Shown here piece after piece: positions 10,472 to 39,225 of a DNA stretch of 64,000 nt (within the stretch, counting starts at the first letter, position 1; every line of letters starts with the position of its first letter). Source of the stretch: a virus; the UHGV virus genome UHGV-0133741. One strand, written 5' to 3'. The notes beneath the pieces were generated by a model that saw nothing but the letters and a program-made list of their open reading frames with translations, was not told the DNA's origin and did no database searches. A program made the position numbers and the translations under genes.

Positions 10472-10496
10472 AAATTGAACCCATTATAAAAGAAAA

Positions 10497-10516
10497 GCCC
10501 GATCGCCGGGCTTTTC

Positions 10517-10517
<1 letters not shown>
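10497..10517. terminator. bidirectional intrinsic terminator between convergent operons
   Basis: GCCCG-ATCGC-CGGGC hairpin flanked by AAAA upstream and TTTTCTT downstream, between the dbn-like gene and the minus-strand tail genes. Confidence 0.6.
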
Positions 10518-13663
<3,146 letters not shown>

Positions 13664-21106: not shown

Positions 21107-21123
21107 ATTGCTCTAATAAATCT
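21107..21123. promoter_or_regulatory. C1 operator-like site
   Basis: ATTGCTCTAATAAATCT, 16/17 to consensus; upstream of the small-peptide/ASCH/PAPS-reductase genes. Confidence 0.55.
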
Positions 21124-33562: not shown

Positions 33563-33579
33563 TAATTTATTAGAGCAAT
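33563..33579. promoter_or_regulatory. C1 operator-like site
   Basis: TAATTTATTAGAGCAAT, 16/17 (reverse orientation). Confidence 0.55.
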
Positions 33580-35798: not shown

Positions 35799-36359
35799 AT
35801 GAAAACAATCGAACAAAAGCTTGAACAGCGCCACGAGTGGCAGAAGGCAGCCAGAGAACGAGCGATCGCTCGGCAACGGGAAAAGTTGGCTGACCCCGCC
35901 TGGCGAGAATCGCAATATCAGAAAATGCGGGATTCTATCGACCGCCGTATCGCTAAACAGAAAGAGCGCCCACCAGCCGACAAAACGCGGAAAAGTGCGG
36001 TAAAGATAAAATCTCGTGGCTTGAAGGGGCGAACACCGACAGCGGAGGAACGGAGCATCGCCAATGCTCTTGGCGCTCTCCCCTGCATTGCCTGCTACAT
36101 GCATGGAGTAATATCTGAAGAGGTATCTCTGCACCATATCTCCGGTCGTACCGCGCCGGGTTGTCATAAAAAGCAATTGCCACTTTGTAGATGGCACCAC
36201 CAGCATGCAGCACCGGCTGAAGTAAGAGCAAAATACCCCTGGCTGGTCCCTGTTCATGCCGATGGTGTGGTTGGAGGCAAGAAAGAATTCACCCTGCGGA
36301 ACAAGTCAGAGATGGAGCTGTTGGCTGACGCCTATGAGATGGCAAACTTATTATTCTAA
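35799..36359 (+). CDS. ref: Ref, HNH-family recombination enhancement endonuclease
   Basis: 186 aa starting MKTIEQKLEQ; HNH-like Cys/His cluster (CIACYMHG...HHISGR...CRWHH). Confidence 0.85.
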   Translation: MKTIEQKLEQRHEWQKAARERAIARQREKLADPAWRESQYQKMRDSIDRRIAKQKERPPADKTRKSAVKIKSRGLKGRTPTAEERSIANALGALPCIACYMHGVISEEVSLHHISGRTAPGCHKKQLPLCRWHHQHAAPAEVRAKYPWLVPVHADGVVGGKKEFTLRNKSEMELLADAYEMANLLF

Positions 36360-36445
36360 TATATTTATTATTTTAGGTTTTATTAAAACAGAACTTCTCT
36401 GTTATTATCGAGATTAGTTCTTCATATACGGGGCATAAGCCAAAT

Positions 36446-37195
36446 ATGACAATACACAAAATCCCCAAAAAATTTTGGGACAACAAAATAGTTGAATGGC
36501 CATGTCCTAATTGTGGGCAAACAACTTTAAAAATTTTAGATGAATCTTTCATCTGTAAGGATACAGCTGAAACTGTCAAAATGGAGGGTGAAGAATGGTT
36601 TGACTTAGAGTATACAAGCTCGGTATTCAGTTGTATGTCACAGTGCGTAAGACCTCAATGTAAGGAGGTAGTGGCATGTATCGGCAGAAGTGGTCTAGAA
36701 CAAGATTGGTGCGAACATAAAGGGCTTAGTTACTATCGCTGGTATGAACCATTAAGTTTTACTCCTGCGTTAAAGCTATTTCTTATCCCGAACATGTGCC
36801 CTGAAGACATAGCCTTGCCTATAAACACCTCGTTTGCACTAAGCACAATTCATCCAGGTGCCGCTGCAAATCTAATAAGAACATCTGTAGAACGGTTACT
36901 TACTGCTATCGGGGTAACTGAAACAAGCGAAAATGGGAATAGAATTAACCTCCATAATAGAATTGAGATGATCCCTAGTGAACATTCTGGCTTTAAAAGC
37001 CTGTTATTTGCGATTAAGTTTCTTGGAAATGCGGGTAGCCACCGCTATGAAAAAGTTACCGCAGATGACTTGGATAACTCATACGAGATCATGAATTTTA
37101 TTCTAAGTGATTTATATTCGGATAATCGCAAAAAGGTTAGTGAGTTAGCTCATAATCTAGACAAAAAATTTAATCCTCAAAAACAAAAATGTTGA
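36446..37195 (+). CDS. Zn-ribbon protein with DUF4145-like C-terminal domain
   Basis: 249 aa; N-terminal CPNCG..C..CMSQCVRPQC; C-terminal AANLIRTSVERLL...AIKFLGNAGSHR...YEIMNFIL resembles DUF4145 as I remember it; AT-rich. Confidence 0.55.
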   Translation: MTIHKIPKKFWDNKIVEWPCPNCGQTTLKILDESFICKDTAETVKMEGEEWFDLEYTSSVFSCMSQCVRPQCKEVVACIGRSGLEQDWCEHKGLSYYRWYEPLSFTPALKLFLIPNMCPEDIALPINTSFALSTIHPGAAANLIRTSVERLLTAIGVTETSENGNRINLHNRIEMIPSEHSGFKSLLFAIKFLGNAGSHRYEKVTADDLDNSYEIMNFILSDLYSDNRKKVSELAHNLDKKFNPQKQKC

Positions 37196-37312
37196 CAACT
37201 GACAAGTGACTTCAGTCAGAATCATCACACGCCCGGTACGGATGGATCCCTTTTCAAATATTCCATGGACGGCACAGTCTGAGTACCGGGCGCTACCTTC
37301 AGCTGTATTGCT

Positions 37313-37340
37313 AAGCCGCCACTGGTGGCTTTTCTTTTTT
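37313..37340 (+). terminator. intrinsic terminator/attenuator between island genes
   Basis: AGCCGC-CACTG-GTGGCT hairpin followed by TTTCTTTTTTT, ending 14 nt before the next start codon. Confidence 0.45.
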
Positions 37341-37353
37341 TGTAGGGGGCGCT

Positions 37354-37995
37354 ATGGATAAGAAAATATGCGTTGTTTCGATGAGCGTCGGCAAACCGGC
37401 GTCAATGACTGCTGCATGGATCAACAACGAGCTGATAATGGCTGAGCGGACCAGCTACCCTGAACGCCGCCGCGACATGGAACTCCAGCTGCTGCGCGAA
37501 TTGCGAGAAAAAGAGGAAAAGGGTTTTATCGTGCTGGTGGAAGAGGAAAACAGCTTTATTACTGGTCGAGTTGGCCAGCGTGTAAGGTTGCGCGATCCCT
37601 TCATGAACGGCAGGCCGGTACTGATTGAAGCAATGCAGATTTACAAGGAGCTGGAACGCCAGAAAGCGATCAAGTTACCGCGCAAGGAATCCGGCAAATA
37701 CATCCTCCACCAAAGCATCTTCGATTCCGAACACGATAAAAAAGGCGATGAATTTTTCAACATCAACTGGAGCGAAATAACGACAGAGCATGTTCTGACG
37801 TTACTATGTTGCTTTGCGACGGAATACAACAACGTTGCCAGCGCCGACTACATCAGGGCAATGGCTGGAGAAGTTGAGGCCCGCCAAGAACCATCGTTAC
37901 TAAGTCCACTGATTAACATAATTCTGGGCACCCAGATACTGGAACAAAAAAAAGTGCCGAAAGGGGTATTAACAGGCAAGCATAATTATTTTTAA
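37354..37995 (+). CDS. hypothetical protein (no recognised domain)
   Basis: 213 aa; strong AGGGGG RBS at a 4-nt spacing; charged, helix-rich composition; AT-rich. Confidence 0.55.
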   Translation: MDKKICVVSMSVGKPASMTAAWINNELIMAERTSYPERRRDMELQLLRELREKEEKGFIVLVEEENSFITGRVGQRVRLRDPFMNGRPVLIEAMQIYKELERQKAIKLPRKESGKYILHQSIFDSEHDKKGDEFFNINWSEITTEHVLTLLCCFATEYNNVASADYIRAMAGEVEARQEPSLLSPLINIILGTQILEQKKVPKGVLTGKHNYF

Positions 37996-38088
37996 CAATT
38001 ATATACAGTAATTTTGTGGTTATATTCTCCATTGATTTTCTAACCGCTTTATCATTAGATGTAACAGCATGTAAATCATTTAAAATGG

Positions 38089-39225
38089 ATGAAAGCAATG
38101 GGGAATGAAGTTTATCAAAGTCAAAAATGCAAGTTGAAATATTCAAAATCTCAAATTGATAGGGCTGCTCAATTGATAAGGCACGGGTGTAGTGACGAAG
38201 AAAGGCAGCAAGCTATTGAAATGATACAAAATTTCCGTGAGCTGCATCTTTATCCATTAATGCTCATGAAAAATCATTTAGCAAGAGCAGCTGCTAAGGT
38301 TGACAAAGACAAAAAGATTCTCGTTGCAAGAAGACTTAAGCGACTTTCTACCATAATAGATAAACTAGAGCGTCCTAGTCTTGATGGAGGCAGAACTAGC
38401 AATGCAATTAAATTAACACGAATGCAGGACGTTGGCGGATGTAGGGCCATTGTCAGAAACTTAGACCAGTTGATACAGCTAAAGGAACGTCTTTTAAAAA
38501 GCAAATCTGTTCATAGGATTGTTAAAGAGTATGATTATCTTACTCCCAAAGACAGCGGCTATAGTGGAATCCACCTTGCATACAGTTGCTTCGATCAGAA
38601 AGAGGATCAATATCCGTGGCGAAAAACAAAGATTGAGATACAGTTAAGAACTCAATTGCAGCATGCTTGGGCTACTAGCCTTGAAATAATTGATACCCTT
38701 GAAGGTATCAAGCTGAAAACTTCAAGTGAAGGGCATCCAGAATGGAGACGATTTTTCTATCTAGCCGGATGTCTTGTAGCGCACGACGAAAAAGCCTGCA
38801 CTCTTGATGAGCTAGTTGTATCTCAGTATGAAGGCGAGCTTAGAGAGCTGGAACGGACTTTATCTGTACGGAGGAAACTAAGCACATACACCCTCGCCTT
38901 AAATTTAACTTCTGACGCGAATTTGATTAAGAAGTTGCCAAAAAATCATAAGGGGCATTACTTAGTAACAATGAGAAATGCAGAAAACAAGCCCAATACA
39001 AAAAACAAAAAAATGTTCCTAGTGTCTGTTCGCGCATTTAAAACAAAAGAAGCAGATGAAGCCCTTGAGGCCTTAAATAAAGACGATTCTGATCCTAATG
39101 TATTGATATCTGTTCTCGTTGCTACAGATAACATTAAGTCACTAAAAAAAGCCTACCCCAACTATTTTGGCTCAACAAACCAGTTTACAAAATTCTTAGA
39201 TAAGCATCTTCGTAACGAAGGATAG
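38089..39225 (+). CDS. fused RelA/SpoT-type toxSAS (CapRel-like toxin-antitoxin)
   Basis: 378 aa; synthetase motifs RRLKRLSTIIDKLER, DVGGCRAIV, DYLTPKDSGYSGIHL, EIQLRTQLQHAWATSLE in RelA/SpoT order; extra Cys-free C-terminal domain of about 100 aa. Confidence 0.7.
   Translation: MKAMGNEVYQSQKCKLKYSKSQIDRAAQLIRHGCSDEERQQAIEMIQNFRELHLYPLMLMKNHLARAAAKVDKDKKILVARRLKRLSTIIDKLERPSLDGGRTSNAIKLTRMQDVGGCRAIVRNLDQLIQLKERLLKSKSVHRIVKEYDYLTPKDSGYSGIHLAYSCFDQKEDQYPWRKTKIEIQLRTQLQHAWATSLEIIDTLEGIKLKTSSEGHPEWRRFFYLAGCLVAHDEKACTLDELVVSQYEGELRELERTLSVRRKLSTYTLALNLTSDANLIKKLPKNHKGHYLVTMRNAENKPNTKNKKMFLVSVRAFKTKEADEALEALNKDDSDPNVLISVLVATDNIKSLKKAYPNYFGSTNQFTKFLDKHLRNEG

Follow-up and report, generated by a model that had tools for sequence, protein, structure and literature searches.

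A structured leader RNA and an intrinsic terminator ahead of the mat gene in a P1-like phage-plasmid

The locus lies in the virus genome UHGV-0133741, of which a stretch of 64,000 nucleotides (nt), one strand, was analysed; this whole stretch is called the window. The gene in question is mat (gene 1 of phage P1), transcribed from its own promoter pair. Between promoter and ATG lies a leader of about 125 nt, with a predicted three-way junction and then an intrinsic terminator. The parts of the locus are the following.

37192-37222, plus strand, mat promoter, equivalent of Pmat/LPmat, identical to P1 2666-2696 and assigned from the P1 GenBank annotation.
37192-37197, plus strand, -35 element TTGACA of Pmat.
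37204-37212, plus strand, late-promoter -22 box AAGTGACTT of LPmat.
37217-37222, plus strand, -10 element CAGAAT shared by Pmat and LPmat.
37230-37292, plus strand, three-way-junction RNA domain, assigned from independent folds, covariation and conservation.
37230-37239 with 37283-37292, plus strand, closing helix of the junction, 10 base pairs (bp).
37242-37246 with 37262-37266, plus strand, hairpin P2, AUGGA/UCCAU, with the conserved loop CCCUUUUCAAAUAU.
37271-37273 with 37277-37279, plus strand, small hairpin P3, GGC/GUC.
37293-37312, plus strand, linker from junction to terminator, variable in length and sequence, with insertions or deletions of 0-30 nt.
37313-37341, plus strand, intrinsic terminator, 8-bp stem AAGCCGCC/GGUGGCUU, loop ACU, U tract UUCUUUUUUU.
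37344-37349, plus strand, Shine-Dalgarno sequence AGGGGG, read from the sequence, with the 4-nt spacer CGCT before the ATG at 37354.
37354-37995, plus strand, mat (P1 gene 1), 213 amino acids (aa), assigned from the open reading frame (ORF) and P1 homology.

A sequence-only reading of the stretch had placed the plus-strand ORF of 213 aa correctly at 37354-37995 and had called its product unknown. The product is, by homology, Mat of P1, a long-known particle-maturation protein. Identity by tblastn of the 213-aa ORF against phage genomes is 94.8% for P1, 94.8% for P7, 95.8% for SJ46, 72.5% for JK004 and 34.8% for D6. The ORF matches PHROG 1837 ('maturation control protein') at E = 1.4e-112, positions 1-213 of 212. 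A megablast search of complete Escherichia coli genomes with positions 37100-38100 matched 701 records, nearly all of them plasmids of about 90-100 kb; RefSeq labels the matching ORF in those plasmids 'maturation control protein', flanked by a 'DUF4145 domain-containing protein' and a 'RelA/SpoT domain-containing protein'. The gene order of the top-matching plasmid is Lpa, the PacA/PacB terminases, C1, cre, c8, ref, DUF4145, mat, RelA/SpoT, lxc, ulx and a darB-like methylase. Lack of conservation and frameshifted relatives had been named as grounds for discarding the ORF; it is kept in about 1000 plasmids. Its position matches the P1 order, downstream of cre-c8-ref and behind Pmat/LPmat, with the Ref domain upstream and the DUF4145 cassette between. 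By gene content the window is a P1-like phage-plasmid.

P1 mat is the same gene, with an identical promoter and the same ref-mat synteny. The window differs from P1 in carrying the DUF4145 cassette between the operator Omat and the promoter, and a RelA/SpoT gene in place of res/mod. The P1 annotation has no terminator or leader RNA at mat; the segment is called coding. The gene is already known, and reportedly its description in P1 includes Pmat/LPmat and Omat; the leader RNA and the fold assignment given below appear to be undescribed. Mat has so far been a name without a mechanism. Bacterial genetics relies heavily on P1, and resistance and defence genes are widely carried by P1-like phage-plasmids. 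In a CRISPR interference screen, knock-down of mat gave an efficiency of plating of 0.28, and mat was counted among the 'known essential genes missed' (PMC10695390).

The P1 GenBank record places the C1 operator Omat at 2628-2645 and the -35 element of the sigma-70 promoter Pmat at 2666-2671 upstream of mat, with the overlapping late promoter LPmat (-22 box 2678-2686; shared -10 element 2691-2696). Window positions 37192-37300 are identical to P1 2666-2774, and all Pmat/LPmat elements are unchanged. Across the P1 clade a ACAAGTGACTT-type box and TTGAC are kept. The promoter pair is said to give both early and late expression of mat; P1 late promoters are activated at initiation by Lpa/SspA. 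No P1 transcript map was found in literature searches. From the promoter elements, transcription is inferred to start at about 37229, one base ahead of the inverted repeat. The earlier statement that a terminator hairpin is the only sequence upstream is contradicted by this promoter. Its corollary, that expression needs read-through or processing from the upstream gene, holds for read-through of the leader terminator; dependence on the upstream gene falls away because the Pmat/LPmat elements stand unchanged at 37192-37222. Nor does the terminator belong to the upstream gene, since that gene is divergent in D6, and in the JK004 and Pantoea loci it has a separate terminator of its own before the mat promoter.

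The terminator reads AAGCCGCC-ACT-GGTGGCTT in the DNA at 37313-37331, followed by TTCTTTTTTT to 37341. It has the properties of an intrinsic terminator, with five G-C pairs in the 8-bp stem, a 3-nt loop and the U tract UUCUUUUUUU; on the opposite strand no U tract follows the stem. Its folding energy is -11.1 kcal/mol (z = -3.7 against shuffled sequences). Its end lies 2 nt short of the mat Shine-Dalgarno sequence and 12 nt short of the ATG, where the first reading, which had recognised the hairpin, counted 14. The ribosome-binding site AGGGGG with its 4-nt spacing is confirmed at 37344-37349; the length of its G run varies among relatives. The inverted repeat noted as 8 bp (CCCGGTAC/GTACCGGG, 37232-37239/37283-37290) is present with a true length of 10 bp (CGCCCGGTAC at 37230-37239, GTACCGGGCG at 37283-37292), and it encloses the palindromes GGATCC (37244-37249) and CCATGG (37263-37268), as reported. 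The 63-nt junction domain folds with z = -3.2.

Conservation was assessed on alignment A4, which holds 14 distinct P1-clade leaders (the window, P1, variants, Cronobacter phage JK004, and Salmonella, Citrobacter and Pantoea elements). RNAalifold returned from it the 10-bp closing helix, two internal hairpins and the terminator. Paired cells amount to 97.6% and drop to 36-43% once the 3' partners are shifted by one to three columns; five pairs are changed on both sides, against none or one in the slid controls. The observed covariation score was reached by none of 500 shuffles. In the closing helix 4 of 10 pairs covary (CG/UA/AU, GC/AU, UA/CG and AU/GC), with G-U pairs as the single-step intermediates. 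Independent folding of four divergent leaders gave the same three-way junction. Nucleotide identity in relatives is 73-78% in the junction, 66-71% in the mat coding sequence (CDS), and 56-65% in linker and terminator, with structure kept. The P1 clade and the D6 clade, at a protein identity of 35%, have the motif GAUGG...CUUUUSACAA...UUCC in common, and at each D6-clade locus tested a covariance model built on the P1 clade matches the stretch directly ahead of mat. From D6-clade leaders aligned with MAFFT, RNAalifold returned the terminator only, because the junction region is misaligned there. The D6 leader (L003 2860-2930) holds two interleaved complementarities (CGCGCU...GGCUCCC...AGCGCG...GGGAGUC), noted on visual inspection in that single lineage, from which a pseudoknot might form. 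By these comparisons the leader is a conserved structured non-coding RNA; the structured leader and attenuator-like hairpin proposed from the letters of the window are borne out by conservation and covariation.

The palindromes might act instead as DNA, as a regulator site or a cruciform downstream of the promoter. GGATCC, CCATGG and the perfect 10-bp repeat do adjoin a promoter under complex control. Such a role is nevertheless very improbable and is disfavoured because the G-U (T-G) intermediates, found in seven cells of the closing helix, pair only in plus-strand RNA; moreover GGATCC is not conserved (GGGACT in JK004 and L008; L numbers designate the loci compared), and the element is tied to the terminator downstream.

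The covariance model found no second copy of the leader in the window. One match, at 10473-10582 on the minus strand (19.7 bits), was rejected as only a gene-end hairpin with a U tract (gene 10517-11149). The motif GATGGRACTCTTTYCAAA gave 16 matches in viral contigs, four of them true leaders, all upstream of mat; the others are chance matches inside unrelated genes. A scan of 36900-38200 with Rfam 15 at E <= 10 gave only the chance matches MEG3_2 and Ms_IGR-4, and no family.

In the P1 records AF234172 and NC_005856 mat is annotated at 2716-3468, 250 aa, from a start equivalent to window position 37242, so as to span both hairpins. If that annotation were right, the upstream segment would be coding and the hairpins just codons. 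In P1, and in 50 of 120 relatives, that frame is indeed open. The U tract of the window holds one T more than that of P1, which throws the upstream ATG out of frame, and among the 120 instances this ATG is out of frame in 70; the distance between the two ATG codons ranges from 102 to 119 nt across the fetched relatives through indels in the T and G runs. Window and JK004 read the perfectly conserved GGACGGCAC in different frames because of a 1-nt indel. The start MDKKIC is invariant in an 18-sequence alignment down to 40% identity, the N-terminal extensions being mutually unrelated between lineages, and PHROG 1837 begins at the Met of the 37354 start. Substitutions in the leader keep base pairs, not codons. 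A strong Shine-Dalgarno sequence serves the internal ATG; the upstream ATG lies about 13 nt from the probable transcription start and has none. PGAP records use the 213-aa start, and some pipelines call a Mat of 247-262 aa with unrelated N-termini. The coding interpretation is thus virtually untenable, and, as judged from the homologues, the true Mat is the protein of 213 aa from the ATG at 37354, the 250-aa P1 annotation being over-extended. The P1 reference Mat begins 111 nt too far upstream (AF234172 2716-2826; also NC_005856). A leader-peptide ORF is not conserved: the ATG at 37242 falls within the GAUGG motif, its frame and length differ by lineage, and it is absent in D6 and Klebsiella.

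The P1 clade, D6 and Klebsiella/Citrobacter plasmids all have a G+C-rich hairpin and U tract whose end lies 16-33 nt ahead of the mat start codon, with stems and loops that differ; the same arrangement precedes mat in L005 (40% identity), L152, L166, L168 and the remote L198. Recurrence with other stem sequences reaches relatives at about 22% protein identity. The D6 terminator is GGCCGC-CAUGU-GCGGCC; all 10 D6-clade leaders compared carry its stem GGCCGC/GCGGCC unchanged, around loops that vary. Pantoea keeps the GGCCGC/GCGGCC hairpin, its U tract UUUCGCCUUUU being under the scan threshold. In L198, whose Mat matches the profile at E = 4e-10, the unrelated stem GGGCACCUCU-GCUU-AGAGGUGUCC is followed by U8 and then AGGGGCGC-AUG. 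The U-tract, Shine-Dalgarno and start context of L198 (4960-5000) is near that of the window (UUUUUUUUAGGGGCGCAUG vs UUUUUUUGUAGGGGGCGCUAUG), the terminator stem being entirely different. The terminator characterises the enterobacterial P1/D6 group, and one further lineage at least, but does not extend to the family as a whole.

Homologues of the P1 baseplate and tail genes 26 and 25 come directly after mat, with an overlap of a few bases or no gap, in D6, Klebsiella, Pantoea and Vibrio elements and in remote relatives (remote Mat homologues at profile E of about 1e-8 to 1e-30), and further downstream in those loci lie Phage_base_V and PAAR genes. Mat stands first in the baseplate module in L003, L095, L096, L097, L098, L008, L004 and L196-L203, often with ref before it. 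The module order is mat, a gene 26-like gene (about 106 aa), a gene 25-like gene (about 400 aa) and later Phage_base_V and PAAR. In P1 itself mat is separated from genes 25 and 26; the module pattern is found outside the P1/P7/SJ46 group. Start codons of mat in the D6-like clade are TTG (Klebsiella, Citrobacter; L095/L098 2501) and GVG-type GTG (Pantoea; L096 1638). Such starts suggest selection for low translation of Mat.

Comparison of relatives establishes the identity of the gene, the sequence of its promoter, the non-coding nature and structure of the leader, the conservation of the terminator and the fold of the protein described below. The leader is probably a cis-acting transcription attenuator or antitermination checkpoint; this is the best reading because of the baseplate-operon context and the conservation of the junction loop. 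Such a checkpoint could be constitutive, as a tuned attenuator, or regulated, as a site of antitermination. Polymerase starting at Pmat/LPmat would transcribe the junction and then meet the terminator. Termination would leave a short leader RNA of about 110 nt without a ribosome-binding site, and mat mRNA would come only from polymerase reading through. In D6-, Klebsiella- and Pantoea-type relatives read-through would also cover the entire baseplate operon headed by mat. Because its sequence is kept more strongly than the mat CDS, the junction is the likely recognition site for whatever sets read-through, which may be a phage protein, possibly Mat, or RNA polymerase itself. Late read-through should be substantial, since essential virion genes sit behind the terminator in D6-type and similar phages. 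The P1 phage family is thought to rely solely on the activator Lpa for its late genes. A leader RNA absent from Rfam that gates mat, and in relatives the baseplate operon, would be a testable further layer of late-gene control.

Several points weigh against the checkpoint and the RNA structure beneath it. The covariation rests on only about seven independent lineages. The covariance model scores D6-clade loci weakly (12-22 bits, E 0.002-0.5), and the closing helix is imperfect in some D6-clade members, for example L140. The leader terminator is absent in Vibrio L097 and in L196, L199 and L201-L203, and because it is missing from these several remote lineages it is not obligatory for mat. No conserved antiterminator pairing was found in the aligned leaders, only G+C-rich complementarities of 4-6 nt (GGACGGC/GCCGCC), and no candidate ligand or protein for the leader was found. 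The start site, the occurrence and efficiency of termination, the regulation and the role of Mat are inferred. The leader could also act as no more than a stabiliser or constitutive dampener, or be a small RNA (sRNA) in its own right.

Taken as a separate sRNA gene, the leader would yield an RNA of about 110 nt from Pmat/LPmat, its loop CYCUUUUCAAA acting in trans, and mat would be expressed by leak-through. Promoter, structured body, terminator and long U tail do form a typical enterobacterial sRNA layout, the loop is the best-conserved part of the leader, and P1 already uses the regulatory RNA c4. This is unlikely all the same. The element has turned up only at mat, element and gene have decayed jointly in the degenerate copies L093 and L094 (Mat fragment only), and the Shine-Dalgarno sequence of mat always follows the U tract by a few nt. 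Complements of the loop in the window number 3, against 3.3 expected, one of the three being the opposite strand of the leader's loop itself. Read-through cannot be incidental, because essential baseplate genes of D6-type phages lie downstream without a promoter of their own. Anti-Shine-Dalgarno pairing of the P2 loop (CCCUU/CUCUU) with AGGGG/AGAGG is not claimed, since any pyrimidine loop pairs with any Shine-Dalgarno sequence; the register differs by lineage.

Unlikely, too, is a passive leader, in which the junction protects the mRNA and the terminator, leaky and constitutive, serves as insulation, holding Mat levels down and blocking read-through from ref or cargo. In the leaders inspected no alternative antiterminator structure turned up, and the weak TTG/GTG starts of mat in Klebsiella- and Pantoea-clade elements suggest a preference for low Mat levels. 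Insulation would be useful because insertions are known to gather in the gap between ref and mat (PMC5241659, PMC6906374), and in the window the DUF4145 insertion should have uncoupled the C1 operator from Pmat. The internal loops of the junction, however, are kept more than the CDS, beyond the needs of a stabilising stem, and both the P1 clade and the D6 clade (35% protein identity) have the loop motif; an insulator against upstream genes would be expected before the promoter, not after it.

The proposed checkpoint resembles the lambda PR'-qut-tR' region (6S RNA). In both, a late promoter is followed about 100-200 nt on by a terminator that is, or at mat would be, overcome before morphogenetic genes, and a short terminated leader RNA is, or would be, the default product. 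The two differ in that a Q homologue or qut-like pause signal was not identified at mat, and in that mat has a conserved three-way junction, which lambda lacks. Lambda read-through proceeds via Q-modified polymerase, whereas P1 late promoters are activated at initiation by Lpa/SspA. HK022 put, an antiterminator RNA that acts in cis, is likewise a compact conserved multi-helix RNA past a phage promoter and before terminators, and it needs no protein factor. There is no sequence or model match to put (Rfam), and put consists of two stem-loops, whereas the mat leader has a closed three-way junction. Attenuators and riboswitch platforms share with the mat leader the order of a sensor-like domain, a terminator and the ribosome-binding site of the gene; the mat leader differs in that no conserved alternative pairing of the terminator's 5' arm was found, and it has no leader peptide and no Rfam match.

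Mat has no match in Pfam, in a sequence search of the PDB or in PADLOC. Its profile, run against 1.84 billion representatives, recovers 142 clusters of proteins of about 200-230 aa. In fold Mat is a stand-alone counterpart of the large-terminase nuclease domain (RNase H-like), with a beta-beta-beta-alpha-beta core and terminase-type elaborations. It is a single domain of 213 aa without an N-terminal packaging ATPase. In the family, position 63 is D/E in 75 of 80 and position 64 is E/D in 78 of 80; these two form a conserved acidic pair behind strand 4. Either D or N stands at positions 128 and 138. Position 9 in strand 1, where the first catalytic Asp of the RNase H fold is expected, is Ser/Thr/Cys in 70 of 80; these catalytic equivalences are read from secondary structure, not superposition. 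The large terminase of P1 is PacB (phrog_2, residues 33-474). The Mat family profile shows no similarity to PacB, so Mat is not a recognisable paralogue of it; Mat is an extra stand-alone terminase-nuclease-like protein beside a complete PacB. The nearest known counterparts are the terminase nuclease domains of T4 gp17, G20c, Sf6 gp2 and E217 TerL, and RuvC. Unlike the large terminases, Mat lacks the ATPase domain, and mat is encoded with baseplate genes, not packaging genes. The fold is a first structural hypothesis for a role in particle maturation.

A bolder form of the antitermination reading makes the leader a new class of phage antitermination element, with Mat (a terminase/RuvC-fold protein altered in its catalytic site) as the effector, or a put-like junction RNA, rendering polymerase terminator-resistant. 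This is improbable. An analogue for Mat as effector is TEFM, a RuvC-like pseudonuclease that acts as an anti-termination factor for mitochondrial RNA polymerase. Were Mat the effector, 'maturation control' would mean transcriptional licensing of the baseplate/tail operon, and the early and late expression of mat, its first place in the baseplate operon of every relative and the co-evolution of the leader would be explained.

The flanks of mat hold the following features.

36350-36366, plus strand, C1-operator-like site ATTATTCTAATATATTT, three mismatches to the consensus, matching the position of P1 Omat at the 3' end of ref.
36446-37195, plus strand, DUF4145 gene (PHROG 1305, 'DNA binding protein'), in a cassette of about 815 bp at 36376-37191.
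38089-39225, plus strand, RelA/SpoT-domain gene (PADLOC PDC-S33), in the slot of P1 res/mod.

In an alignment with P1 2560-2720, homology runs through the end of ref and the Omat-like operator, breaks, and resumes exactly at the -35 element of Pmat; the TGA stop of the DUF4145 gene (37193-37195) sits inside TTGACA. The DUF4145-Pmat junction is present in 242 of the 701 matched E. coli records, about a third. By its position the insertion should uncouple the sigma-70 promoter of mat from C1 repression.

The RelA/SpoT gene begins 93 nt downstream of mat on the same strand, with no terminator-like site found between. Its product shares 74% identity with its RelA/SpoT counterpart in Salmonella phage SJ46, which is presumably the fused toxin-antitoxin CapRel-SJ46. 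The sequence-only reading had asked whether deleting the ORF would change toxSAS-mediated defence or toxicity. A link is not supported: mat is a core gene in P1, P7 and D6, where res/mod or baseplate genes occupy the RelA/SpoT position, and it occurs without a RelA/SpoT gene in P1, P7, D6, Klebsiella and Pantoea elements. Mat matches no PADLOC defence model; the neighbour matches PDC-S33. Both flanks of mat are variable regions of P1-like plasmids (PMC6906374, PMC5241659). By synteny, mat is a conserved core gene between two cargo slots, not a toxSAS accessory. These slots are the ref-mat and mat-lxc junctions (DUF4145, CapRel-like toxSAS), and inserts can uncouple the mat promoter from the C1 operator.

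Sites with at most three mismatches to the C1 operator consensus ATTGCTCTAATAAATTT number 15 in the window, against 0.3 expected. Examples are 5109-5125, 21107-21123, 33563-33579 and 52092-52108. The 15 sites are consistent with a complete P1 immunity network in the element.

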